NCBI GenBank assembly: GCA_039714075.1 | Contig: JBDLKA010000004.1 | Span: 25,782 to 89,781, forward strand | Direction of reading: 5' to 3' | Length of the DNA: 64,000 nucleotides | Source: Candidatus Krumholzibacteriota bacterium | GTDB lineage: Bacteria; Krumholzibacteriota; Krumholzibacteriia; LZORAL124-64-63 | Shown here: positions 36,378-49,192 of the stretch, in pieces | Layout: the number at the start of each line of letters is the position of its first letter | How positions within the stretch are numbered: position 1 is the first letter of the stretch | Notes under the pieces: generated by a model | Told to the model about the DNA's origin: nothing | The model's input: only the letters and a program-made list of their open reading frames with translations | Database searches by the model: none | Made by a program: the position numbers and the translations under genes

Positions 36378-38141
36378 TCACTTGAGCAGCATCATCTTCC
36401 TGGTCTCTACCAGGTTGCCCGTTTGGAGCTGGTAGAAATAGATACCGCTGGAGCGACCGCGGGCATCCCACGTCACCGCGTGCATGCCTTCACCCAGGAC
36501 ACCATCGACCGGGGTATCGACCAGACGGCCGCGTGCGTCATAGACGCGCAGGGCGGTGTATCCCTCGTGCGGAAGCACGAACTGGAACACCGTGGTCGGA
36601 TTGAACGGATTCGGATGATTGGCCAGCTGGACCGCACCGGTCGCGGGCAGGCCGCGGCGGTACACGTCGCCGCTCTCGCAGCTGCGTGTGGTCACGTTCG
36701 AGGCCGGATCGTAGGTCAGCGAAGCGTGGGTAACGTCGGTCACCTCGAAGCACCACTCGCCCGAGGGGTTCTTCAGCTTGGGCGTCGAGAAGGACGCGAC
36801 GCCGGTCGAACCTGTCAGGGAGCTCAGGGTCCCGCTGTTGGGGCCGTCATAGCTGACGGTCACCGTGGCGCCGGCCGCAGGCGCACCGCCGTCGTCGACG
36901 ATGGTGACACTGCAAAGGCCGGTGTTGTTGGGCCCGGCGACCTTGCGGCTGACGGCAATGTCAGAGACGTACATCGTGCTGCCGCCGCTGCCCGGCTCGG
37001 TGACCGTGATGTACCCGTTCCTGGTCAGGGTGTCCGAACCGTCGCCGTTGGCCACCGTCAGACTCACGTTGTAGCTGCCCGCGGCGGTGTAGGTGTAGCT
37101 CGGATTCTGGGCGGTCGAGGTGCCGCCGTCGCCGAAGGTCCAGTCCCAGCTCGTGGGCCCGCCGGTGGACTCGTCGCTGAACGCCACGGTCAGCGGGTAG
37201 TCGCCGCTGGTGGGGGTCCCGCTGAAGGCCGCCGTCGGTCCGGTGGGCGTCGTGCCGCCGTACATGGTCGGGCGGTAGAGGGCCATCTGCTGGTTCATGC
37301 GCGTGGTCTGGTCGGCCGTGAACTCGTACATGCAGTAGTCGTCCGTGTAGTCCATGAAGTTGGTGATGGGGTCGATGCCCGGAGCGGAGCAACTGTCGCG
37401 ACCCTCGGGGCACCCGTAGGCCGGGGAGCTTTCCTGGGGAGTGTCGTCGCAGTAGTCGTTGGGCTCCGTGCAGCCGTCCTGGAAGGTGTGATACAAGCCG
37501 AGGAAGTGACCCGTCTCGTGGGTGGCCGTGTCTCCCTCGTTGTAGGGATCGGCCCAGCCGCCGGGGACCGAGCCCCAGAGGCAGACGACGCCGTGCAGGT
37601 AGCTGTCCTCGGGATACATGTCGGGGAAGGTCGCGTAGCCCAGCAGCCCGCCGCCGATGTCGCAGAAGTAGAGGTTGTAGGTGGTGGCCGGATCGATGGC
37701 CAGGGCCTGCTTCATCTGGACCATCTGGTTGCTGCCGTAGCGGTGGGTGGACCACCTGGTATTGTAGGTGCGGTCGATGCTTGCCAGGGAGAAGCTGAAC
37801 CCGGTGCCCTGGTAGGCGGCGTTGAGTACGTCCATCTGGTCGTAGATGTAGGAATCGGGCACGTCGGCGTAGCCGTCATCGTGGGCGACGACGTGGATGG
37901 CGACCGGAATCACGACGCCGGCCTTGTCGCGCATGAAGCCGCTGGCCTTGAGCCAGGCATCGACCGCCTGGGCGTTCCGTTCAATGTCGTCGGCGGTCGG
38001 GACAGGCGTGGAGCAACGGACCCCCTGGACCACGGCTCCGGCGGAATTCTGATAGGTGATGTCGGCGGCCATGACGGCCGTCCCGAGCATCAGGATAGAT
38101 AGCGACAACAACATGAATCCCAATGGCTTGAATCTCTCCAC
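36378..38141 (-). CDS. Secreted M43 (pappalysin/ulilysin-like) zinc metalloprotease with PKD and FlgD-Ig/T9SS-like domains
   Basis: HETGHFLGLYH zinc motif; NFMDY Met-turn; PKD motif WTFGDG; PNPFNPTT C-terminal domain. Confidence 0.92.
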   Translation of the reverse strand: MERFKPLGFMLLSLSILMLGTAVMAADITYQNSAGAVVQGVRCSTPVPTADDIERNAQAVDAWLKASGFMRDKAGVVIPVAIHVVAHDDGYADVPDSYIYDQMDVLNAAYQGTGFSFSLASIDRTYNTRWSTHRYGSNQMVQMKQALAIDPATTYNLYFCDIGGGLLGYATFPDMYPEDSYLHGVVCLWGSVPGGWADPYNEGDTATHETGHFLGLYHTFQDGCTEPNDYCDDTPQESSPAYGCPEGRDSCSAPGIDPITNFMDYTDDYCMYEFTADQTTRMNQQMALYRPTMYGGTTPTGPTAAFSGTPTSGDYPLTVAFSDESTGGPTSWDWTFGDGGTSTAQNPSYTYTAAGSYNVSLTVANGDGSDTLTRNGYITVTEPGSGGSTMYVSDIAVSRKVAGPNNTGLCSVTIVDDGGAPAAGATVTVSYDGPNSGTLSSLTGSTGVASFSTPKLKNPSGEWCFEVTDVTHASLTYDPASNVTTRSCESGDVYRRGLPATGAVQLANHPNPFNPTTVFQFVLPHEGYTALRVYDARGRLVDTPVDGVLGEGMHAVTWDARGRSSGIYFYQLQTGNLVETRKMMLLK

Positions 38142-38370: not shown

Positions 38371-41300
38371 TCACCTGACCAGCATCATCTTCTGCAACAA
38401 ATCCCCCGCACCGGTCTCCAGTTTCGAAAAGTAGACTCCCGAAGCAACCGCCCGGCCGCGACCATCGGTGCCGTTCCACACAACCTCGTGTTCGCCGGCT
38501 GGCATGACCTCGCCGAGCAGCGTCTTCACCAGTTGGCCGCGGGCATCGAAAACCCGCAATTCCACAGGTCCGGATGACGGCAGACTGAAGCGGATGCCCG
38601 TCATGGGGTTGAACGGATTCGGAGCGATCCTCATGGACAATTGCGGCCGCGGGGTGTTCCCGTTGTCCAGCGCGAATTCCCCGTCGTTCAGACCGGCCAC
38701 CGCCATCGCCACGTCACCGGAAGCCGGCAAGGTTGGGTGGATCTCCCCCTCGAGGACCACCGAGGGGGGTTGCCCTTCCGAACCGCTGCCGGATCCCACC
38801 CAGAAGTAGGCCGGCTCCGCATCGGTAACCGAAACGCGCATGTGCACGAGTTGGAGAGGTCGATCGGAAAGCGTGCGGCGGGTTACGGGATACCCCACGA
38901 CCAGGCCGTCGCCGGCAGTGAAATCGAGACCGGTTCCCACCAGGTCCTGTTGGTGGACGACGACGTTTCCGCTCACCCGAATCCGCAGGTCGAAAGCCTC
39001 GATGCCGGTCTGGGCGGCGGAACCGTGCAGAACGACATAGGCATCGATCTGCTCGCCCGGGTCAAGCATGCGCGAGCTCCAGATTCCCGCCGCGTCGAAA
39101 ACAACTCCCATGGTTCCAACGAGCCGGGTCCCGGCCGACCCGCCCCCGGCCACGATCGTCTTGGCCGGAACCGGGCACGACACTCCCATGACCGGACCGA
39201 GCTTGGCCACATCGGACAGGTTGATCATCCCGTCCCAGACGAAATCCGCGGCATAGTCGTACGCTTCACCGAAATAGATGCCGGCAAAATCGGCCACGTC
39301 ATTCAGGGACACCTCGAGGTCGCCCGTGATGTCGGCGCCGTTGACGAAATACTCGAGGCCGTCAAGCCCGCCCGGGTAGCTTGTCGTGTTCAACAGCGGA
39401 TCATCCACGCTCACCTGCAGCAACTCGCCCGGTCCGCTATGGCCGCCGGCGAAAAGAACTCCGCTGATGGTCGTTGCGCCGGTTGCGTCCGTCGGGCCAT
39501 CAGCCGTCAAGGGAGAACCGGGGCATTGGGTCCAGCCGCCGTACTGGGATCTGACGCTTATCTTTTCGGCCGGGAAGCCCACGACCGGATCGCCGAACCC
39601 GTCGACAACCTGCACACCAATGGCAGCATCCACTTCGATTGGCGCCGCACCGGATACGCCGTCCCAAGACAGGGCCGCGGTCAGCGGATGGCCCAGGCCG
39701 TCGGGCGTCGCGAAGAGGGAAACCGGTCCGCCGAGGGCCTGCACGGGGAAGACGGTCACGTTGATCTCGCCCGCAGGTTCGGGTTCTGATCCGGCGGCAT
39801 AGTTCTGCAGGATGTCCTCCAGGGGCAAGGAGCGATCGAACAGGGCGACAAGGTGAAGCTCGCCGAGCCAGGGCCGGTCACCCGTCAGTTCGTTGGCCAC
39901 TCCCAGGCGGTAGGATCCATCCCAGTTCGAAAAATCCCCGGTTGTCTGACCGTTGACCCGTTCCACCCCGTCGACGAAAATCCTGGTCAACCCGGCGCTG
40001 TTGCGAGTGAACACCACATGGGACAATTCCGTGGTCAGAGTCCCTACCAGGGTCGCGAGTGCGGGTTTCCCGTTCAGGTCGGTGGTCGTCGACCGCAGCC
40101 GCACTTCGTAGACGTCCGAGGCCTCTCCGTAGACACCCTGCCCGAGGGTGAAATTCCGCGTCCCGGTATCAGGCGAGAGGGTCACGATGCGGGCGGGTCC
40201 GTTCTGGGTGAGGTTGGCCGGCTTGATCCAGGCCTCGATGGTGATCTCGTTGGTGGCCGTCACCGCGTCGATGAGTTTGGTCGAAGCTCCCGCCGTGCCG
40301 ATCACCGTCGAGCCGTTGACGGACAGGGCGCCGGCCAACCAACCCACGGCGCCGGGGTCGTCGATGACCAGGTCGGCCGGAGTCCCCACTCCGGACAAGT
40401 CGTTGACCGTATTCCCGCCGCCCTCGTTGAAATCATACAGGACGACCTGGCCCGCCGTGGCCCGGGACCCGGGTACCAGCACGGTGAGGACGGCCTCATC
40501 GCTGACATCGCCGCCCAGCCCGTTGGTCACCACGCAGCGGTAGAGATCGCCGTCGTTGACGGCCGCAAGCGGTGGGGTCGTGTAGGTGGAATCGGCGGCG
40601 GCGGGAATATCCATCCCATTGACCTGCCACTGGAAGGAAAGCGGGTCGGCACCGACCGCGACGACACCAAAAGTCGCGGTGGCTCCTTCGAGGGCGAACG
40701 TGCTCGAAGGCTGGGTGACCACACTGGCGGGGACATTCGAATAGTCCACGTACCGTACGACCACGCCCGGCCCCGGCCAAAGGTATTCCGCGCCATGGTG
40801 GGAACTGGCGGAATAGACCGTGACGGTATTCGTGCCGTTCTGCAGAATGTTCGTGGGGATTTCGATCTGGTCGAACGAATAGGAATGGTCCTCGCCGAAT
40901 ACGGGGGTGGTCCAGCCGTTCACCCGCGTCCAGTGGACCTCTCCGGGCTCGGCTTCACCATTGAGCCCGTTCCAGGTGGCGACAAGAAGGCGCGCCGACT
41001 CGGCGTTGACCAGATCGTGCCCTGCCGGAATGACGAAGTCGCTGGAGCGGGTCCGGCCGGCCCTCACCCAGTATTTCTCCGGAACACCGGTCGGACGGTA
41101 CATCGCGACACTGATTCCGGGGCGGCTGAGGGTCAGGCCCGACACCCGGTCGGTGACGAACCACAAACCATTCGCATCCCGGATGCGGGCGACGACTTCC
41201 ATCCCGCCGGCCGGCTGGTCGGGAATCCAGGAGTTGTCCCAGGACACCGAGAAGGGCGAAGAGATCGTCGTGCCGATGTGATTGCGGATCATCACCGAGG

Positions 41301-42063
41301 TGTCGGACCGCAGACGATGGTAGCTTTGCTGCCAATCGGTGAATATGCCGTCGCCGTCGGCGTCGTAGTCATCGTAGTAGCCGATGAACTCGACGCGGCT
41401 GATGCCCGCGCCGCTGGCGGCATCCGCTGTGAAGACGGGACTGATACCGATCGTGTCTCCGGCCGCCGGGCTGGTGATGTTCCCGGTCGGCGCCGTTTTC
41501 TGGCCCGGATCGTAGAAGACCCGCAGGAGGAATCCGTACCACCCCCACTGCCCCCAGCCGAAGCTGTAGCACGTCTGTCTATCGGAAATGCCCTCCAGCG
41601 AGTTGTTGCCCTGCACCAGGTCCGCAAGAGGGACTTCGACTTCGATGGAAAACTGATGGTTGTAACACTCGGGGCTCGTCGGGGTGTTGGCGATCTCGGG
41701 AATGTCGATCCAGTTGTTGCCGTTCAGGCGGAACTGCTTGCCGATCGTTCCGATGTGCCCGCCCCAGACATCGATGACCGCCACGGCCCTGATCGCGCCC
41801 TGCAGGTCGGACACCGAAAGACTGAGCACGGGATTCGGCAGGAAGGTGGAGGGAGAATTGTTGGGATCCCCCACATAGGTGGCGTCAGGGTCCGTCACCC
41901 TCCACAGGTTGTTGCTGTTCGGAATGATCCTGGAAAATTCCTTGTACACCAGACCCGGCGCCACGGCCTTCAGGGTGTCGGAAGTCGAATACTGGGCACA
42001 CACCGGATTTCCCGCCAGCACCAGAAAAACGACGGCAAGAAAAATAAATGGCACCTGGCGCAT
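38371..42063 (-). CDS. Large secreted multidomain protein (Ig-like, LamG, dockerin-like, FlgD-Ig/T9SS-like C-terminal domain)
   Basis: Signal peptide from ATG 42063; Ig-like FQWQ..YRCVVTN; LamG ITIEAWIKP..SHVVFT; paired Ca-binding-like loops; PNPFNPMT. Confidence 0.82.
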   Translation of the reverse strand: MRQVPFIFLAVVFLVLAGNPVCAQYSTSDTLKAVAPGLVYKEFSRIIPNSNNLWRVTDPDATYVGDPNNSPSTFLPNPVLSLSVSDLQGAIRAVAVIDVWGGHIGTIGKQFRLNGNNWIDIPEIANTPTSPECYNHQFSIEVEVPLADLVQGNNSLEGISDRQTCYSFGWGQWGWYGFLLRVFYDPGQKTAPTGNITSPAAGDTIGISPVFTADAASGAGISRVEFIGYYDDYDADGDGIFTDWQQSYHRLRSDTSVMIRNHIGTTISSPFSVSWDNSWIPDQPAGGMEVVARIRDANGLWFVTDRVSGLTLSRPGISVAMYRPTGVPEKYWVRAGRTRSSDFVIPAGHDLVNAESARLLVATWNGLNGEAEPGEVHWTRVNGWTTPVFGEDHSYSFDQIEIPTNILQNGTNTVTVYSASSHHGAEYLWPGPGVVVRYVDYSNVPASVVTQPSSTFALEGATATFGVVAVGADPLSFQWQVNGMDIPAAADSTYTTPPLAAVNDGDLYRCVVTNGLGGDVSDEAVLTVLVPGSRATAGQVVLYDFNEGGGNTVNDLSGVGTPADLVIDDPGAVGWLAGALSVNGSTVIGTAGASTKLIDAVTATNEITIEAWIKPANLTQNGPARIVTLSPDTGTRNFTLGQGVYGEASDVYEVRLRSTTTDLNGKPALATLVGTLTTELSHVVFTRNSAGLTRIFVDGVERVNGQTTGDFSNWDGSYRLGVANELTGDRPWLGELHLVALFDRSLPLEDILQNYAAGSEPEPAGEINVTVFPVQALGGPVSLFATPDGLGHPLTAALSWDGVSGAAPIEVDAAIGVQVVDGFGDPVVGFPAEKISVRSQYGGWTQCPGSPLTADGPTDATGATTISGVLFAGGHSGPGELLQVSVDDPLLNTTSYPGGLDGLEYFVNGADITGDLEVSLNDVADFAGIYFGEAYDYAADFVWDGMINLSDVAKLGPVMGVSCPVPAKTIVAGGGSAGTRLVGTMGVVFDAAGIWSSRMLDPGEQIDAYVVLHGSAAQTGIEAFDLRIRVSGNVVVHQQDLVGTGLDFTAGDGLVVGYPVTRRTLSDRPLQLVHMRVSVTDAEPAYFWVGSGSGSEGQPPSVVLEGEIHPTLPASGDVAMAVAGLNDGEFALDNGNTPRPQLSMRIAPNPFNPMTGIRFSLPSSGPVELRVFDARGQLVKTLLGEVMPAGEHEVVWNGTDGRGRAVASGVYFSKLETGAGDLLQKMMLVR

Positions 42064-42200
42064 GGGGTCCCCCAGGAGAAGAATGAATGATGTCCAAAAG
42101 GGGTTGCGGCCGAATGATAATTCGGCCGCATTCGGAATATCCCCCCCAGACACCATAGATTGGTCAGGGGTATTCCGCTACCTGACGGGGATTGCAGCGC

Positions 42201-43148
42201 TCAGCGGGTTATCAGCCCCAGCCCGATGTGGACGCCGAAAATGGTTCCGCCGTATTCGTCGATCACCAGGCCGGGTTTGTGGGTAAGGTCCAACCCCACG
42301 TCCAGCACCATTCCGCGGCCCAGCGGGACCAGGCTGCCCAGCCGGGCCAGAAGCGCGCCCTTGTTTGCAGTGAATTGATTGAGTTGAAGACCCGGCACTT
42401 CGGTCTTCGCCTTGTGGCGCAGGAGACCAACGCCAAACTCCGCGTAGGGGATGTGGCCCAGCGCCGCGAACGGTCGAGTGGGCAATCCCACCAGCAGCAG
42501 GAACTCGTCGATGCCCAGGTCGGCGGTCGCGTCGACCTCGTTGAAGCCCTCGTCAAGAACCTTGAAGCTGACGCTCCCCCCGCTCTGGCGGATGTAAGAC
42601 AGTGTGATCCAGTTATTGTCGTCGATTCTCAACCTTGCGGTCGCCTGAAGACCGGGCGACGACTCGAATCCATTGAACCAGTCACCTTCGTAGTGGGCGT
42701 AGGTGCCGCCCAGCGTCAGGGCGAAATCGAACAACGACGGGGCGCCCAGACGATTTTCGGGATCGGGTTCCGCCAATGATCCAGGTTGTGGCGCAGGGCT
42801 CTGGCGATACGCCGACGATCCATCACCTTCCGGGCGAGCCGCCGCGATTTCGGAGGTCAGATCCGCGCCGTCGGCAGCGTACACGGCTACGACTTCTTCA
42901 GGCGGAAAGTCGCGATGACGCCCGTCGCTCAGCGTGATCCGCACGAGCGACCCGCCGGGAAGCCAGCGCAGGGAGACATCCGACCAGGTCCAGCCCTCGG
43001 CCGTCGTGACCTGAACTCCTTTCCACGTCGTCCCGTCGGGTAGCTCGTTCACCTGAGGGTCTCCGCCGACTTCCTGAGCAGAAGCCGTGCCGGCGGCCCA
43101 GAGACAGGCCAGCATGATCACAACTCCGATTTGTCGCGGTATCATCAT
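42201..43148 (-). CDS. Putative outer-membrane beta-barrel protein, paralogue 1
   Basis: Signal peptide from MMIPRQ (GAGGT RBS); amphipathic beta-strands in the C-terminal half. Confidence 0.65.
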   Translation of the reverse strand: MMIPRQIGVVIMLACLWAAGTASAQEVGGDPQVNELPDGTTWKGVQVTTAEGWTWSDVSLRWLPGGSLVRITLSDGRHRDFPPEEVVAVYAADGADLTSEIAAARPEGDGSSAYRQSPAPQPGSLAEPDPENRLGAPSLFDFALTLGGTYAHYEGDWFNGFESSPGLQATARLRIDDNNWITLSYIRQSGGSVSFKVLDEGFNEVDATADLGIDEFLLLVGLPTRPFAALGHIPYAEFGVGLLRHKAKTEVPGLQLNQFTANKGALLARLGSLVPLGRGMVLDVGLDLTHKPGLVIDEYGGTIFGVHIGLGLITR

Positions 43149-43174
43149 ACGGTTATCCACCTCGGTGTTCGCCG

Positions 43175-44125
43175 TTACCAGCTCACCCAACCGACCCCGG
43201 CATGAAACGCAATGAAGGTGCCGCCGGGCCCATCTTCCAAGAACGAGGGCTTCAGGCCGACGCGCATCTGCAGGTCCAGCACCGAATTTTCGCGCATGGG
43301 CACCAGGACTCCGAGCTGGGCCACGATGCCGAGATTGCCGCCGGAGTGACTCTCGGAATCGAATCCCGGCGCCTGCGCCGTCGTCTTTACCCGGATGGCG
43401 GTTAGGCCCAACTCGCCCGTCATGAACGGGCGCCGGTCGGATCGCGATCCCAGGCGTCGTCCCAACACCAGGCAATACTCCATGAAGCGACGCGAGAATT
43501 CGGCCGTCACCAACGGGCCCGGGCCTCCGGTGTCGATGTGGAAGTCATGGCCGCCTGCAGCCTGATTACGGTACGCCAGGCCGAGCCATGATTTGCCGCT
43601 GATGCCAATACGAATCGTCCCCATCAGACTGAGTCCCGGGTGCAGGCTCGAGAAGGCATCACCCCCAAGAGCGCCCCAACCGGCCGAGGCCGTCCAGGCG
43701 CTGCCGAATACCTTGGCACGACCACCCTGTGCCAGCCCACGCTGCTCGGAGCCAACGATGCCGATCTCGTTGTGAACCGGCGTCGCAGGCGCCGGTTCCT
43801 CGGGGGCGCCGGCGGGTCTGGCGGCCATGACCTCGGCCCGCAGATCGCGGTATTCCGAACCAACGATTCGCATCAGCCGGTCCGGATGCACGTCCATCCA
43901 GCCGCCGTCCGACCGCAGCAGGTGCAGCCGTGAGCCATCGGCAACCCAACGCACTGTCACGTCGGTGATGACCCGGTCGTCTTCCAGCACGACGAATGAC
44001 GGCGTCCACGACGGACCGGCAATCGTATCGCTCGGCGCCGCGACTTCCTGGGCGTACGCTACGCCGCCGGTCACCAGATGAAGAAGGAATGCGAGGGTGG
44101 AAACGAACCGGATATTGTCATTCAC
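43175..44125 (-). CDS. Putative outer-membrane beta-barrel protein, paralogue 2
   Basis: Same architecture as its neighbour; ends in an aromatic residue (GVGWVSW); GTG start uncertain. Confidence 0.62.
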   Translation of the reverse strand: MNDNIRFVSTLAFLLHLVTGGVAYAQEVAAPSDTIAGPSWTPSFVVLEDDRVITDVTVRWVADGSRLHLLRSDGGWMDVHPDRLMRIVGSEYRDLRAEVMAARPAGAPEEPAPATPVHNEIGIVGSEQRGLAQGGRAKVFGSAWTASAGWGALGGDAFSSLHPGLSLMGTIRIGISGKSWLGLAYRNQAAGGHDFHIDTGGPGPLVTAEFSRRFMEYCLVLGRRLGSRSDRRPFMTGELGLTAIRVKTTAQAPGFDSESHSGGNLGIVAQLGVLVPMRENSVLDLQMRVGLKPSFLEDGPGGTFIAFHAGVGWVSW

Positions 44126-44318
44126 GAAAAAATTCCCATTAGTCGGATGTTCATCGATGTTACAAGTCAACAGGCCACGGCACAATTGTGAGCGGTCGCC
44201 GGATTCCAAACCGGGCACCTGGAACAGGTGGGTTCAACCTGCTGCTACCTTTAGATCAGCATATCATAGGGATTCGGAGTATTTAAGATCAATTTGCAGG
44301 GTGGAAATGGTATTCCAG

Positions 44319-44645
44319 CTAAGAGGGAACGGATGAACCGGAGGCAACCATGTCCGATTCGCACCTAACCGCGGGCCCCAAATCGTTCAGCCGCAGATGA
44401 CAGAAGATGTGTTGCCCGTCGGCATCCACGATGCGCAGTTCATCATCCTGCGTGGTATCGGTCAGGACCCGGTCGAAGGTCGGTCCATACCACCGCCGAA
44501 CCTCGTCGACGGGGATTTCGTGCGCGATGAACTTCCCGATGCCCTTCGCGGCCATGCGCGAAATCAAGTCCGGATCGTCCAGCGTATCGAGTGAGGTGAG
44601 GACAAGGATGGGTCCGGATCCCGTGAAGACTATTGCCGCCTTCAT
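44319..44645 (-). CDS. Small hypothetical cytosolic protein
   Basis: Strong RBS AAAGGAGG; MKAAIVFTGSGPIL..KGIGKFIAHE. Confidence 0.75.
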   Translation of the reverse strand: MKAAIVFTGSGPILVLTSLDTLDDPDLISRMAAKGIGKFIAHEIPVDEVRRWYGPTFDRVLTDTTQDDELRIVDADGQHIFCHLRLNDLGPAVRCESDMVASGSSVPS

Positions 44646-44948
44646 GGCGCCCTCCTTTCATGGGAACGGACGGTCAAGGCCGTACCGAGAGAGGTAGTCT
44701 CAAGATAAACAGGGCGGGCATGGATCGCCGCCGAGCTACAAGGATGCGCACCCCTTCGAACCGGTTGGAGTATGCATTGACCCGGTGGCCGGCTTGCGGT
44801 TAAATCAGTTCTGCCTATGATTTCCGCAAGGAGGAAAATGATCACCCTTCTCTTCCTCCGACGCTTCCCCCATATCGCTGTCAATCTTGCGGGCGGTCCT
44901 GTTCGGCTCGGGGTTTTGTAATAACAACTGATCAGAAGTGAAGGATTG

Positions 44949-45191
44949 ATGGCAGGTTACCCACGGCATTGGAATTTTGACGAGATCTATGATTCGGCGG
45001 ACCGCGGCTGCGGCGATTTCATCATCGACCTGCGTGAAGTGATGACGGATCTGGAACCGGGAGCGACGCTTATGGTGGCCAGCCGCGACGCCGGCGCTCC
45101 GGTGGAAATCCCGGCCTGGTGCCGCCTGACCGGTCACAAACTGATCGCGGCCGAACCGCCTTTCTACCTGTTGTGCAAGCGCGATACCTGA
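44949..45191 (+). CDS. TusA/SirA-like sulfur carrier protein
   Basis: 80 aa; DRGCG in place of the TusA D.RG..CP motif; RDAGAPVEIPAWCRLTGH; ATG 44949 after GAAGGA. Confidence 0.82.
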   Translation: MAGYPRHWNFDEIYDSADRGCGDFIIDLREVMTDLEPGATLMVASRDAGAPVEIPAWCRLTGHKLIAAEPPFYLLCKRDT

Positions 45192-45213
45192 ACCTGAAGG
45201 AAGGATACCGATC

Positions 45214-45579
45214 ATGGCCAATACATTCTGCGTGACGATTACCGAGAGCAAAACCAACGGTGACAAGGCCACCGTGGGTTTCGTGGTGGCCAACGCGGCC
45301 CTGGGCAGCGACAAGGACACCCTGGTTTTTCTGAGCGCCGACGGCGTGTGGTCCGCGGTCAAGGGCGAAGTCGACAAGATCGTCGAGGGCGAACCTTTCG
45401 CTCCGCTCAAGGAGCTGGTCGAGAAGTTCACGAACGGCGGCGGCAGGATCCTGGTCTGCTCCCCTTGTATGAAAAAGCGAGGCATCACCGAGGACATGCT
45501 GATCGAAGGTGCGGCTCCAGCGGGCGGGGCCGCCCTGGTGGAGTGGCTGTCCAACGGATCGCCCTGCGTGGGGTACTAG
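45214..45579 (+). CDS. DsrE/DsrF-like protein with CxxC
   Basis: VFLSADGV and GGRILVCSPCMKKRGI. Confidence 0.85.
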   Translation: MANTFCVTITESKTNGDKATVGFVVANAALGSDKDTLVFLSADGVWSAVKGEVDKIVEGEPFAPLKELVEKFTNGGGRILVCSPCMKKRGITEDMLIEGAAPAGGAALVEWLSNGSPCVGY

Positions 45580-45581
45580 AA

Positions 45582-46328
45582 ATGGCGGGACTTGACGATC
45601 TGGTTCCGGATCATGTTTTCGACGGCGGTGACCTGGACTGCGGGTCGGGCCTGGTACTGCTGATCCGGGAGCACATGCTCAAGGTACCGCCGGACGGTGT
45701 CCTGGAGATGCGTAGCGTCGAATCCACCGTGGCCGACGACCTGCCGCCCTGGTGCCGCATGGTGGGACACGAGTTTCTGGGGTCGCTTCCCGGGGAATCG
45801 GCCGCCCAGAAACGGTTCTTCGTGCGGAAGGGAGCCGGCCAGGTGGCGCAGGAAGAAGCCAAAGCCCTGGAAGAGGACAAGGACCGCGCCCGACAATACC
45901 AATGGCGCCTGCGGGCACGGGCGTCAGGTCATCTGAAGACCACGGTCTACTGTCGCAACTTCCAGTGGGATCTGGGGCAGCCCGCCAGTTTCGAGGAGAA
46001 GGACGCACATCCTTCGGCGGTGGAGGCCGTGCTGGGGGCCCTTGCCGGCGACCTGGTGACGGGGTTTTCCTCGGCTGCGGCCGCCTCCGGTCTGACGGTG
46101 GACGATGTGGAACTGACGGCCTGTGGAAGGTTGCACGATGTCATGGCCCACCTAGGTCTGAGCGAGGGCGATCCATCGTTTGCGGCCATCGAGGTGAAGC
46201 TGTTTGCCTCGACATTCGACGATGAAGAACGTGTGCGCACGGTCTGGGAAAAGACGGTCCGGCGTTCACCCCTGGCGGCAACCTTGGCCAAGGCCACGGA
46301 GTTGGTGGCGAAGATCGCCATCGTGTGA
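45582..46328 (+). CDS. TusA-like + OsmC-like fusion protein
   Basis: True start ATG 45582; N-terminal DGGDLDCGSG..DLPPWCRMVGH; C-terminal OsmC-fold pattern PSAVEAVLGALAGDL..RSPLAATL. Confidence 0.82.
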   Translation: MAGLDDLVPDHVFDGGDLDCGSGLVLLIREHMLKVPPDGVLEMRSVESTVADDLPPWCRMVGHEFLGSLPGESAAQKRFFVRKGAGQVAQEEAKALEEDKDRARQYQWRLRARASGHLKTTVYCRNFQWDLGQPASFEEKDAHPSAVEAVLGALAGDLVTGFSSAAAASGLTVDDVELTACGRLHDVMAHLGLSEGDPSFAAIEVKLFASTFDDEERVRTVWEKTVRRSPLAATLAKATELVAKIAIV

Positions 46329-46337
46329 GGAGAATCA

Positions 46338-47489
46338 ATGTTCGACGTGACTCAGGTAGGTAGCTGGCCTCGCTCAAGAGACCTGCTGCGCGCCCTGCGG
46401 GACAAGCGGTTGGGGCGTATGTCCCGGGACGAGTTCGACAAGGTGGCCGACGAGGAAGTGCGCCGCTGCGTGGCCCACCAGGTGGAAGCCGGGGTGGACC
46501 TGGTTGTCGACGGCGAGCAACGGCGCGATAACTTCTACTCCTTCGTCGCCGACAAACTCGACGGCACCCGCCTGATGTCCCTGGCCGAGATGCTCGATAC
46601 CGTGGACGACAAGGCCGCCTTCGAGGAAATGCTTTCGACCCTGGATGTGCCGGCTTCGGCCATCCGCAATCCCACCTGCACGGGCCGGATCTTCCGCCGC
46701 GAACCGCTAGCTGTAGAAGAACTCAAGTTCGTGCAGCAAATTACGAACAAGCCGGTGAAAGTCACCCTGCCAGGGCCCTATCTCCTGACCCGCTCCATGT
46801 GGGTGGGTGCGTTTTCCAGGGCCGGTTACGACGACAAGGCCGAACTTGGGGACGACGTGGTGAAGATCCTGCGCGAGGAACTCGGGGAGCTGCGCGACGA
46901 GGGCGCCGCCTTCGTGCAGTTCGACGAGCCGGTCCTGACCGAGATCGTCATGAGCGAGGACAACGACCGCCGCACCTTCATGTGAGCCACCCTGGCCACC
47001 CGCCGTGATGCGGGTGCCGAGCTTGAATACGCGGCCGAGCTGATCAACCGGATCACCGACGGAATCGAAGGCGTCCGCACCGGTGTTCACGTCTGCCGCG
47101 GCAACTGGAGCCGACAGGAAGACGTGTTGCTGACAGGTGACTATCACGCGTTACTGCCCGCATTCGACGCCATGAAGATCGACCAGTTCGTGCTGGAATA
47201 CGCCACGCCCCGGGCCGGCGAGCTGGCCATTGTCGGCGAGGCCTTGAACGACCGGGAGCTTGGTCTGGGCTGCGTGAATCCCCGCACGGATGATGCCGAG
47301 GATTCCGCCGACATCGTGGCGCGCGCCGAAGAAGCCCTGCGGTACTACCGGCCCGACCAGATCTTCCTGAACCCCGACTGCGGTTTCGGTTGCTTCGCCA
47401 ACCGTTGCGTCAACGAAGAAGAGCACGCGGTGGCGAAATTGAAATCCATGGTCGGTGCTGCGCGAAAATTGAGGGAGCGGCATGGATAG
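46338..47489 (+). CDS. Cobalamin-independent methionine synthase (MetE catalytic domain)-like protein, 383 aa, probable selenocysteine at residue 216
   Basis: ORFs 46338-46985 and 47124-47489 share a frame, separated only by TGA 46983-46985. VGSWPR, DGEQRR, TLPGP and VQFDEP lie before it; Zn ligands HVC, E and PDCG lie after it; SECIS-like hairpin follows. Confidence 0.85.
46992..47021 (+). promoter_or_regulatory. Putative bacterial SECIS element
   Basis: Stem CACCCGC (46997-47003) / GCGGGTG (47010-47016), loop CGTGAT, extended by GG/CC and CT/AG pairs with bulges; starts 11 nt after the TGA. Confidence 0.72.
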
Positions 47490-47507
47490 GGTAGTGGGAA
47501 GGCCAAG

Positions 47508-48074
47508 TCAGGTCCAAAGGTGATCCACGGCCTTCACCAGGCGTTCGGGTCCATCGCCGTCGGGTGAGACGATCAGGTAATTGACGATCCCGATGTTGAG
47601 TGATGTGAGCAACTTGGCCAGGCCTTCGATGTCCACCGCGGGCGCGAGATCCCCCGCCTCCCGGGCGGCCCTCAGGTTGGCGAGATAGCGGCCCTCGGTA
47701 CCCTCGACCATGCTGGTCACCTTGGCGAAGGCGTCGCCGGGAACCACGAACTTTTCGCGGATGAGATTGACGGCGAAGCAGCCGTGGGTGGTGCCGAACT
47801 CGAGGAGCGCCTGGTAGGCATCCCGTATGTTCTGCAAACCCAGCGGCTTGCGGTCGTAGATGGCCGAAAATGACGCCAGCTCCTCCATATAGGCCGCCAG
47901 GGCCGCCATGAACAGCCCTTCCTTGCCCCCGAATTCCTTGTAGAGGCTGAACCGGTTGATCCCGGTGACCTCTACAAGCTCCTTCAGGTGGGTGCCTTCG
48001 TATCCCTTGGTCCAAAACAGCTTCATCGCCTTGTTCAGGACGTCGTCACGGTCGTATTTGCGTGGGCGGCCCAT
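47508..48074 (-). CDS. TetR/AcrR family transcriptional regulator
   Basis: MGRPRKYD..FWTKGYEGT..GINRFSLYKEFGGKEGLF helix-turn-helix. Confidence 0.92.
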   Translation of the reverse strand: MGRPRKYDRDDVLNKAMKLFWTKGYEGTHLKELVEVTGINRFSLYKEFGGKEGLFMAALAAYMEELASFSAIYDRKPLGLQNIRDAYQALLEFGTTHGCFAVNLIREKFVVPGDAFAKVTSMVEGTEGRYLANLRAAREAGDLAPAVDIEGLAKLLTSLNIGIVNYLIVSPDGDGPERLVKAVDHLWT

Positions 48075-48126
48075 TTTTTTTCCTCTCCCGGTTGGTTGTA
48101 TTTCAACAATTTACAATGATTCTGCG

Positions 48127-48204
48127 AGTTTGCAACCTATCGTTCTAAAAAAACTCTTGCGGACGGAATTAATCTTGATTAGTTTGACACCTATCGTTCT
48201 GAAA
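48127..48204. promoter_or_regulatory. Two putative TetR operator sites
   Basis: AGTTTGCAACCTATCGTTCTAAAA (48127-48150) and AGTTTGACACCTATCGTTCTGAAA (48181-48204) in the divergent promoter region. Confidence 0.7.
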
Positions 48205-48244
48205 CTAGTCAAGTCCCCTGAAATAATGAAAAAGAGGTACCAAA

Positions 48245-49192
48245 ATGGCGAACTACTCCTACGAAAAATGCTTGGCTTCTTCCTACAAGGTCAACTGGCG
48301 GATCGAGGACATCATCGGCGGTCGGGAATTCGATCGCAACAAGCACTGGCTGCCCGCGGCCGTCTCCGGTGAATCCCGTATCCAGGGGCTCTCGACCGAC
48401 GAGCGGCGGATGCTGACCCACGTCGAAATGGCCGCCTACACCCACCTCTTCGGCTACGTCGAGGAGTTCATCGCGCCCAAGGTTGCCGACCTCGCCAAGG
48501 AATACGAGATCGACGAACGCATCGCGTTCGACGCCTTGACGAACTTCGCAGCCGAAGAGGTGAAGCACATGAACCTTTTCAAGCAGCTGCGGGCCATGGT
48601 CGATGAGACCCTGGGTTTCGAGACCGACCTGATCGGAGGCCAGGCCGACACCGCCCGCTACGTGCTCAGCAAGAGCACGGGCGCGGTGCTTCTGCTGACC
48701 GCCTGTATCGAGTGGTTCACCCAGCAGCACTACCTCGAGGCCTTCCGGGACGACTCGGACCTCGATCCCTTCACCACCGACATCTTCAAGGCCCACTGGC
48801 AGGAGGAGTCGCAGCACGCCCAGATGGATCATATCGAGGCGGTGCGGGCCTTCTCCAACATGGATCGCATGCAGCGGGACGAGGCCGTGGACGACCTGAT
48901 CGAACTGGTCGGGGCGGTGGACGGCATGCTGCAGGACCAGGTCGAGCGAGACATGAAGAACTTCATGACCTACACCAACCGGAAGATGGATGCTGAAATG
49001 GCCGACGAGATGCGGCGAGGGCTGCTGAGCGCCAAGCGGTGGACCTTCATCGAGTCGGGAGTCACGCATCCCCGGTTCATGGAGCTCATCGAGGAAGTGA
49101 CCGACGAGAAGCAGCGGGAGCGCATCGGCGCCGCCTTGACGCCTCTGCTCGGCAACGAGCTGATGGCAGAGACGGCGGAAGATGCGGGATGA
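48245..49192 (+). CDS. Ferritin-like diiron protein (AurF/desaturase-like)
   Basis: E (YVEE), EEVKH, E (IEW) and EESQH diiron ligand pattern. Confidence 0.78.
   Translation: MANYSYEKCLASSYKVNWRIEDIIGGREFDRNKHWLPAAVSGESRIQGLSTDERRMLTHVEMAAYTHLFGYVEEFIAPKVADLAKEYEIDERIAFDALTNFAAEEVKHMNLFKQLRAMVDETLGFETDLIGGQADTARYVLSKSTGAVLLLTACIEWFTQQHYLEAFRDDSDLDPFTTDIFKAHWQEESQHAQMDHIEAVRAFSNMDRMQRDEAVDDLIELVGAVDGMLQDQVERDMKNFMTYTNRKMDAEMADEMRRGLLSAKRWTFIESGVTHPRFMELIEEVTDEKQRERIGAALTPLLGNELMAETAEDAG

Follow-up and report, generated by a model that had tools for sequence, protein, structure and literature searches.

A probable MetE-like zinc enzyme with a predicted selenocysteine, encoded beside TusA- and DsrE-like carriers in a Krumholzibacteriota genome

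In methionine synthase MetE and the single-domain enzymes MesA–MesD, zinc is held by the equivalents of H251, C253, E287 and C348 of the protein described below, and homocysteine is bound by the equivalents of S9, E60 and D196, according to the available part of PMC7857596; selenocysteine (Sec) is not mentioned in the main texts on MesA–MesD (PMC7857596, PMC7005905). Catalogued selenoproteins with methyltransferase or carrier folds include arsenite methyltransferase, MduS, methylated-DNA–protein-cysteine methyltransferase, and DsrE-like and OsmC-like proteins (PMC13188914, Table 1). The consensus for the bacterial SECIS hairpin, as found in the accessible portion of the same paper, comprises a G within the first two loop positions, 16–37 nt from the UGA. 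Finally, the transfer of sulfur from TusA to DsrE is established in another system (PMC4175335, excerpted text).

The locus described here lies in a 64,000-nt stretch of DNA from Candidatus Krumholzibacteriota bacterium (contig JBDLKA010000004.1, positions 25,782 to 89,781; hereafter, the window). A MetE-like gene is located there as the last member of a tightly spaced operon on one strand, preceded by genes for TusA-like, DsrE-like and TusA–OsmC proteins:

44949..45191, + strand: TusA-like protein, 80 aa, with Cys21 and Cys58 (PF01206, above cut-off)
45214..45579, + strand: DsrE-like protein, 121 aa, with Cys6 and C82xxC85 (PF02635)
45582..46328, + strand: fusion of a TusA-like domain (Cys20, Cys58; weak PF01206 match) and an OsmC-like domain (PF02566, above cut-off)
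46338..47489, + strand: 383-aa barrel enzyme made of one MetE-like (PF01717) domain, predicted to bind zinc, with Sec216 (PF01717 match, AlphaFold model, 3RPD match)
46983..46985, + strand: in-frame TGA, predicted to be read as Sec, in a low-confidence loop without MetE counterpart (codon and protein alignments)
46998..47015, + strand: bacterial SECIS-type hairpin inside the coding sequence, with G at loop position 2 (fold and cross-locus conservation)

Databases carry a truncated product of 215–220 aa for such genes (e.g., SHO42629.1), and in the cultured type strain Desulfopila aestuarii DSM 18488, which has the family, the gene is annotated as a truncated 220-aa protein. The first-pass annotation of the window had instead joined the open reading frames 46338–46985 and 47124–47489 into one 383-codon frame with a single TGA and had placed all four zinc ligands 3' of it; the present analysis agrees on both points. 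The TGA at codon 216 is the sole internal stop, the frame ends with the TAG at 47487–47489, and a purine-rich ribosome-binding site precedes the ATG at 46338, whereas the GTG at 47124 is merely the first GTG past the TGA, and the second open reading frame has no real gene start. At 46983–46985, where TGC, TGT or TGG would have indicated a misassembly, the assembled contigs read TGA: the stretch is found with 0 differences in a single contig of the possible source run, and an 89-nt contig from a separate study (run X4) covers the TGA, also with 0 differences. An assembly error at this codon is, hence, unlikely.

Codon 216 is TGA in 94 of 138 related loci and Cys in the remaining 44, with no other codon at this place. 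The genome loci (n = 58) comprise 52 with TGA and six with TGC or TGT, and the best 80 of 573 metagenome loci split into 42 with TGA and 38 with Cys codons. The TGA loci share 57–90% identity and contain no further internal stop. Among full-length protein homologues, Cys occupies position 216 in 119 of 120 (one gap), so the FMC motif that had been named for related proteins was correct, and the earlier proposal that residue 216 is Sec gains the shared TGA and the Cys homologues as its support. A UGA=Trp code, a private nonsense mutation and an assembly error were considered as well and are rejected on the basis of these shared TGA and Cys loci together with the contigs.

The hairpin that had been proposed immediately downstream of the UGA is real: a six-pair stem (46998–47003/47010–47015) carries the loop CGUGAU, starting 18 nt past the UGA, in agreement with the consensus as it stands in the accessible portion of PMC13188914. 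Within one genome, or by folding energy, this is weak evidence: z equals −2.2 for the 45 nt that follow the UGA and just −0.8 to −1.3 in three longer stretches, and a stem of the same type follows 132 of the 4190 TGA codons terminating long open frames in this genome. Rfam gave 0 matches in 44000–48500. It is the comparison across loci that makes the evidence strong: all five core pairs are preserved in 94 of 95 TGA loci (the window included; 90 distinct sequences) vs 1 of 44 Cys loci, and the hairpin codons 221, 222, 223, 225 and 226 rank 1–5 of 116 conserved degenerate sites for the lowest synonymous variation among the TGA genes. Covariation is scant, with one two-sided compensatory change.

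The genome of the window encodes selA, selB and selD, all above curated cut-offs, as well as tRNA-Sec (selC), i.e., all four genes on which the first-pass reading depended. Its selD (L003, G000:C31:20863-21777) is a selenoprotein gene itself, with an internal TGA (SAG-U-AAK). Among the 50 of 58 genomes tested for the machinery (44 TGA, 6 Cys), a selA match was found in 41 of the 44 TGA genomes, and selB exceeded the cut-off in 41 of 44; three TGA genomes of unstated completeness (G036, G040 and G041) have neither a selA nor a selB match. All six Cys genomes possess a selA match, so loss of the machinery does not explain the Cys forms, and the idea that these mark genomes without it is ruled out. 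Overall, the UGA at codon 216 is almost certainly decoded as Sec by SelB via the downstream hairpin, yielding the full 383-aa protein.

The evolution of the site was followed in a quick IQ-TREE tree built without residues 214–228 and without seven short TGA rows, leaving 132 of 139 rows, with the root set by hand on two distant Cys rows. The tree needs three changes, i.e., a single gain of Sec (clade of 94 rows, SH-aLRT 100) and two reversions to Cys, which sit in verrucomicrobial-type genomes still having selA; the starred branches force only two changes. It also shows the RNA hairpin fixing the protein residues R223, A225 and G226. The deepest branch of the Sec clade is made up of two divergent TGA forms (L118 and L133, 58% and 57% identity) reading FM-U-GSL, with the same hairpin and then an Rv1680-like gene. 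Two further cysteines go with the clade: C352 is found in 89 of 91 aligned TGA loci vs Thr in 38/38 ancestral Cys loci, and C357 in 75 of 91 vs Pro in 38/38. The TGA loci span seven phylum labels, mostly Planctomycetota. Around the window's genome, the gene is patchy, occurring in three of 40 relatives (one TGA form, two Cys forms) and in none of seven same-genus genomes. One relative, G090, had been taken for a second TGA form, but its TGA is the terminal stop, and it belongs to the Cys forms.

A second, independent Sec lineage at the same site (FY-U-G) is probable in Bacillota, judging from protein sequences. In the P0130 90% cluster, some members have 395 aa and Trp at the site, and others, including KXB43665.1 (Tissierellia bacterium), end just before it; the distant homologues as a group (the P0130 cluster, P0265, P0200) end at ...SFY or read FYWG. 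Proteins ending exactly before the site, with Trp in their cluster mates, imply a TGA there. A plasmid search with P0130 returned only three 34% matches, and the Bacillota lineage was not found there as DNA.

The read-through protein matches PF01717 over residues 4–376 (E 1.8e-33), and its gene is the sole PF01717 gene of the genome. The AlphaFold model, with Cys in place of Sec, has a mean pLDDT of 87.7; its top structural match is MesD (3RPD; Z 38.3, rmsd 2.2, 318 aligned, 24% identity), and MetE matches through its catalytic half (1XDJ; Z 35.8, rmsd 2.5, 330 aligned). With the equivalence to MetE and MesA–MesD taken from sequence alignments, 120 homologues show no variation at H251, C253, E287, C348, E60 and D196, and S9 is present in 117, with three gaps. 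The enzyme would thus be a barrel of the core-MetE type binding zinc and a homocysteine-like amino-acid thiol, and what seems a broken gene very probably encodes a complete zinc enzyme, a relative of the catalytic half of methionine synthase. Still, S9, E60 and D196 may be retained for structure across PF01717, which speaks against the explanation favored below.

Residue 216 lies in a stretch without MetE counterpart, which coincides with a gap in the 4ZTX alignment and comes after the strand closed by D196. In barrel folds, the loops that follow the strands point toward the active site. The pLDDT is below 50 at residues 209–211 and 216–221; the predicted Sec loop is, hence, a low-confidence part of the model, which does not place the reach of residue 216 to the zinc.

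The N-terminal folate-binding half is missing (383 aa vs about 750 aa for canonical MetE). The TIGR01371 score is 100.5 bits vs a cut-off of 929.95, the scores fall far under every NCBIfam methionine synthase cut-off, all PRK models remain below cut-off, and ESM Atlas returned only generic methionine synthase names. A full-length MetH is encoded in the same genome. CoFeSP (PF03599) had no match in this 92% complete genome, with the control genomes matched; MesX (PF08908) had no match either, nor did the control genomes give one. The enzyme appears to belong neither to MetE nor, on the tests run, to MesA–MesD, seemingly working like a core MetE zinc–thiol enzyme, and it is presumably not the cell's methionine synthase. 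Other MetE-like proteins met in the searches include the more distant P0169 (736 aa), interrupted by an intein that contains Hint and homing endonuclease domains, and P0176 and P0266, in which a nucleotidyltransferase or cytidylyltransferase domain is joined to the MetE-like one.

The carrier operon, missed in the first-pass annotation, favors sulfur transfer over methyl transfer. The methyltransferase activity and the part of Sec as an additional nucleophile, both put forward in that annotation, are putative. In the loci with a match, the TusA-like protein keeps Cys21 in 43/43 and Cys58 in 42/43; the cysteines of the DsrE-like protein are kept in 42–43 of 44 loci, the rest being unaligned. 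In the first set of loci, none of the three carrier-gene products is a selenoprotein. OsmC/Ohr peroxidases have two catalytic cysteines. The OsmC-like domain of the operon features Asp at the position of the Cys in 2OPL and no conserved Cys column, and in the 95 of 106 rows matching the pattern the conserved Pro is preceded by Ser, Ala, Leu or Gly, never Cys; such a domain, apparently devoid of the usual catalytic cysteines, is not expected to be an OsmC/Ohr peroxidase. A sigma-70 promoter scan gave 0 sites, and no terminator-like site was found after the enzyme gene.

The neighborhoods of the two forms differ in loci with at least 2300 bases upstream (62 TGA, 25 Cys). DsrE adjoins 58/62 TGA vs 0/25 Cys loci and TusA 57/62 vs 0/25, counts reflecting few independent events, since the link of Sec to the carriers amounts to one gain and two losses. 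The OsmC-like gene accompanies both forms (57/62 vs 23/25), whereas an Rv1680-like binding protein (10/62 vs 24/25) and an Rv1679-like acyl-CoA dehydrogenase homologue (5/62 vs 23/25) adjoin mainly the Cys forms. Among five genomes looked at, three TGA genomes without adjoining carriers hold a TusA–OsmC gene elsewhere, and two Cys-reverted genomes have the OsmC domain only. A more distant branch has the enzyme with a TusA domain joined to its N-terminus in 7 of the 13 long matches chosen for the scan; several of these fusions are Cys forms that keep FMCG. The window's genome has no Rv1680-like match and only 24–28% dehydrogenase matches, and no close match to the Rv1679/Rv1680-like genes was found in five other Sec genomes; the minimal unit here is, thus, the set of four genes. 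Genes related to corrinoids, folate or SAM did not turn up among the conserved neighbors.

In 13 of the 62 TGA loci (e.g., L017:5582-6196, L023:6149-6733), the small TusA protein has an additional cysteine-rich, zinc-finger-like domain at its N-terminus, its gene often lying downstream of the enzyme. Some carrier genes elsewhere contain a TAG, a TAA or a frameshift (L018 DsrE codon 16; G043:C6:147101-147820; L144:4952-5204), representing decay or assembly errors. In the window, a TetR-family regulator gene (47508–48074, − strand) converges on the operon, preceded by a gene for a 315-aa protein with ExxH motifs (48245–49192, − strand), which we take to have a ferritin-like look; neither is conserved beside the relatives. 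By eye, 42263–43475 and 43175–44218 (both − strand) encode adjacent, similar-looking exported proteins with C-terminal beta-barrel-like sequence, and 36378–38141 and 38371–42156 (both − strand) encode large exported proteins with a common C-terminal domain (HPNPFNP/APNPFNP), the former also with an HEXXH metalloprotease motif and a PKD-like repeat.

The favored explanation, which is plausible rather than probable, is that of a carbon–sulfur or sulfur-transfer enzyme whose Sec sits on a mobile loop and carries sulfur to and fro between a thiol bound to zinc and the TusA/DsrE carriers. In this scheme, zinc would activate a homocysteine-like thiol, and Sec216 would serve as a transient covalent carrier through which sulfane sulfur moves between the thiol on the zinc and cysteines in the TusA domains encoded alongside. 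Reloading or reduction of Sec216 might then fall to DsrE, through its CxxC, and to the clade-specific C352/C357 of the enzyme, and the cysteine-less OsmC-like domain, present with both Sec and Cys forms, could be a scaffold or a ligand-binding partner. Sulfur transfer, whose chances are put somewhat below even, is preferred over methionine synthesis because the conserved partners are sulfur carriers, no methyl-donor protein is found among the neighbors, and MetH is present. Against the relay, the main Cys clade has no adjoining TusA or DsrE (0/25), so the carriers are not universally linked to the enzyme, and both domains are also tied to general selenium handling through YedF (PMC5322559, text available in part). 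The full reading, i.e., a MetE-fold zinc enzyme turned from methyl transfer to a Sec-dependent sulfur-transfer or C–S bond enzyme with its own TusA/DsrE persulfide relay, a nucleophilic counterpart of the TusA–radical SAM enzyme in Rv1679–1681-type loci, with Sec gained at least twice, is tentative and, taken as a whole, somewhat doubtful.

Less likely, though with points in its favor, is a folate-independent methionine synthase or S-methyltransferase, i.e., a fifth Mes-type family, in which Sec or Cys216 takes part in methyl transfer or in redox protection of the zinc site and TusA/DsrE form a reducing system. All seven functional residues of MetE are kept, MesD is the top structural match (3RPD, Z 38.3), and MesD likewise needs an accessory protein, as stated in the portion of PMC7857596 at hand. 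However, the genome has MetH, the conserved neighbors include no corrinoid, folate or SAM-related gene, the scores lie far under the NCBIfam methionine synthase cut-offs, and the patchy occurrence (0/7 same-genus genomes, 3/40 relatives) fits such a function poorly.

The association of the Cys forms with Rv1680-like (24/25) and Rv1679-like dehydrogenase (23/25) genes suggests a thioether-forming or -cleaving step in a specialized organosulfur pathway shared with the Rv1679–Rv1681-type locus (flavoprotein, binding-protein-like protein, TusA-linked enzyme), with a substrate other than homocysteine and with Sec only boosting the rate. The radical SAM model for Rv1681 has a weak N-terminal match to the TusA domain of the window, and the Rv1679-like flavoprotein reads VMAP at what we take to be, from the dehydrogenase consensus, the position of the catalytic Glu of active dehydrogenases. 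This possibility is nonetheless unlikely: the window's genome has no Rv1680-like match and only 24–28% dehydrogenase matches, the five other Sec genomes have no close match, and both neighbor proteins score under the curated cut-offs (399 of 600 and 215 of 400).

That TusA and DsrE track the Sec state, and that YedF, which joins the same two domains, is tied to selenium metabolism (PMC5322559, in the part available), would also suit a Sec216 that is a ligand of the zinc or has a structural or regulatory role, with TusA/DsrE as passengers of general selenium handling that entered the operon along with Sec. This is quite improbable, given that the four canonical ligands are all invariant and that Cys forms of the enzyme carry TusA fusions, so the link between TusA and the enzyme is independent of selenium. 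Lastly, a TGA that is a true stop (in a pseudogene or split gene), that encodes Trp or that arose in assembly is hardly tenable: the truncated database entries (215–220 aa) and the three TGA genomes without selA and selB matches would fit it, but the TGA is common to 94 loci of 57–90% identity with no other internal stop, Cys alone takes its place at these loci, the hairpin is frozen, and the neighboring genes end normally in TGA.

The first-pass annotation had doubted that MetE-like enzymes were among the listed selenoprotein families, rightly so: the 2026 table of 119 families (PMC13188914) contains no PF01717 or MetE-like family, and no selenoprotein model of NCBIfam 20 matches the enzyme. 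No MetE or methionine synthase was found by term search in PMC12013277 (text and four supplements), PMC13745706 (text), bioRxiv 2022.07.06.499078 (text), or PMC13326102 (text and part of the supplement). No report of the family came up among the literature listed, where PMC12013261 (Haft and Tolstoy 2025) was covered via a review table only and Table S2 of BSepDB may lie outside the coverage. The selenoprotein family is real and apparently uncatalogued, and the 2026 catalogue has no entry with this fold. In a large, little-known MetE-like subfamily, the presence of Sec singles out residue 216 as important for function, the TusA fusion and the operon supply testable partners, and the link to Rv1679/Rv1680-like genes provides a handle on another orphan locus, for whose families the literature, as far as it was covered, offered no functional study (Rv1679–Rv1681).

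Compared with the C-terminal domain of MetE (1XDJ, 1T7L, 4ZTX), the enzyme has the same barrel fold, the H/C/E/C zinc ligands and the three homocysteine-binding residues but only 21–26% identity, and it features inserted loops, including the Cys/Sec loop. MesA–MesD (PMC7857596, PMC7005905; MesD = 3RPD) are alike in single-domain size and functional residues, whereas the enzyme here comes with TusA, DsrE and OsmC-like partners and its genome yields no CoFeSP match. The catalogued selenoproteins named at the outset share the UGA with a downstream hairpin and the Cys-containing orthologues; in the window, however, Sec is predicted in the barrel enzyme, the DsrE and OsmC-like neighbors are not selenoproteins, and the FM-U-AT motif, unlike those proteins, has no UxxC or CxxU. 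Relatives of Rv1679 (FadE16) and Rv1680 (NF049984, NF049985) flank the Cys forms, and the Rv1681-type protein (NF049973) begins with a similar TusA-like domain, followed by a radical SAM domain in place of the MetE-like one; still, the scores for these families are under the cut-off, and the window's genome is devoid of an Rv1680-like match. The Metallosphaera DsrE3A–TusA pair (PMC4175335) and YedF, with its TusA-like and DsrE parts (PMC5322559), represent the same domain families with conserved cysteines; as far as the available parts of both sources go, the TusA motif of the window (CGxG/CGxF) differs from their CPxP, and the known carriers are coupled to Hdr-like complexes or SelD, those described here to a MetE-like enzyme.
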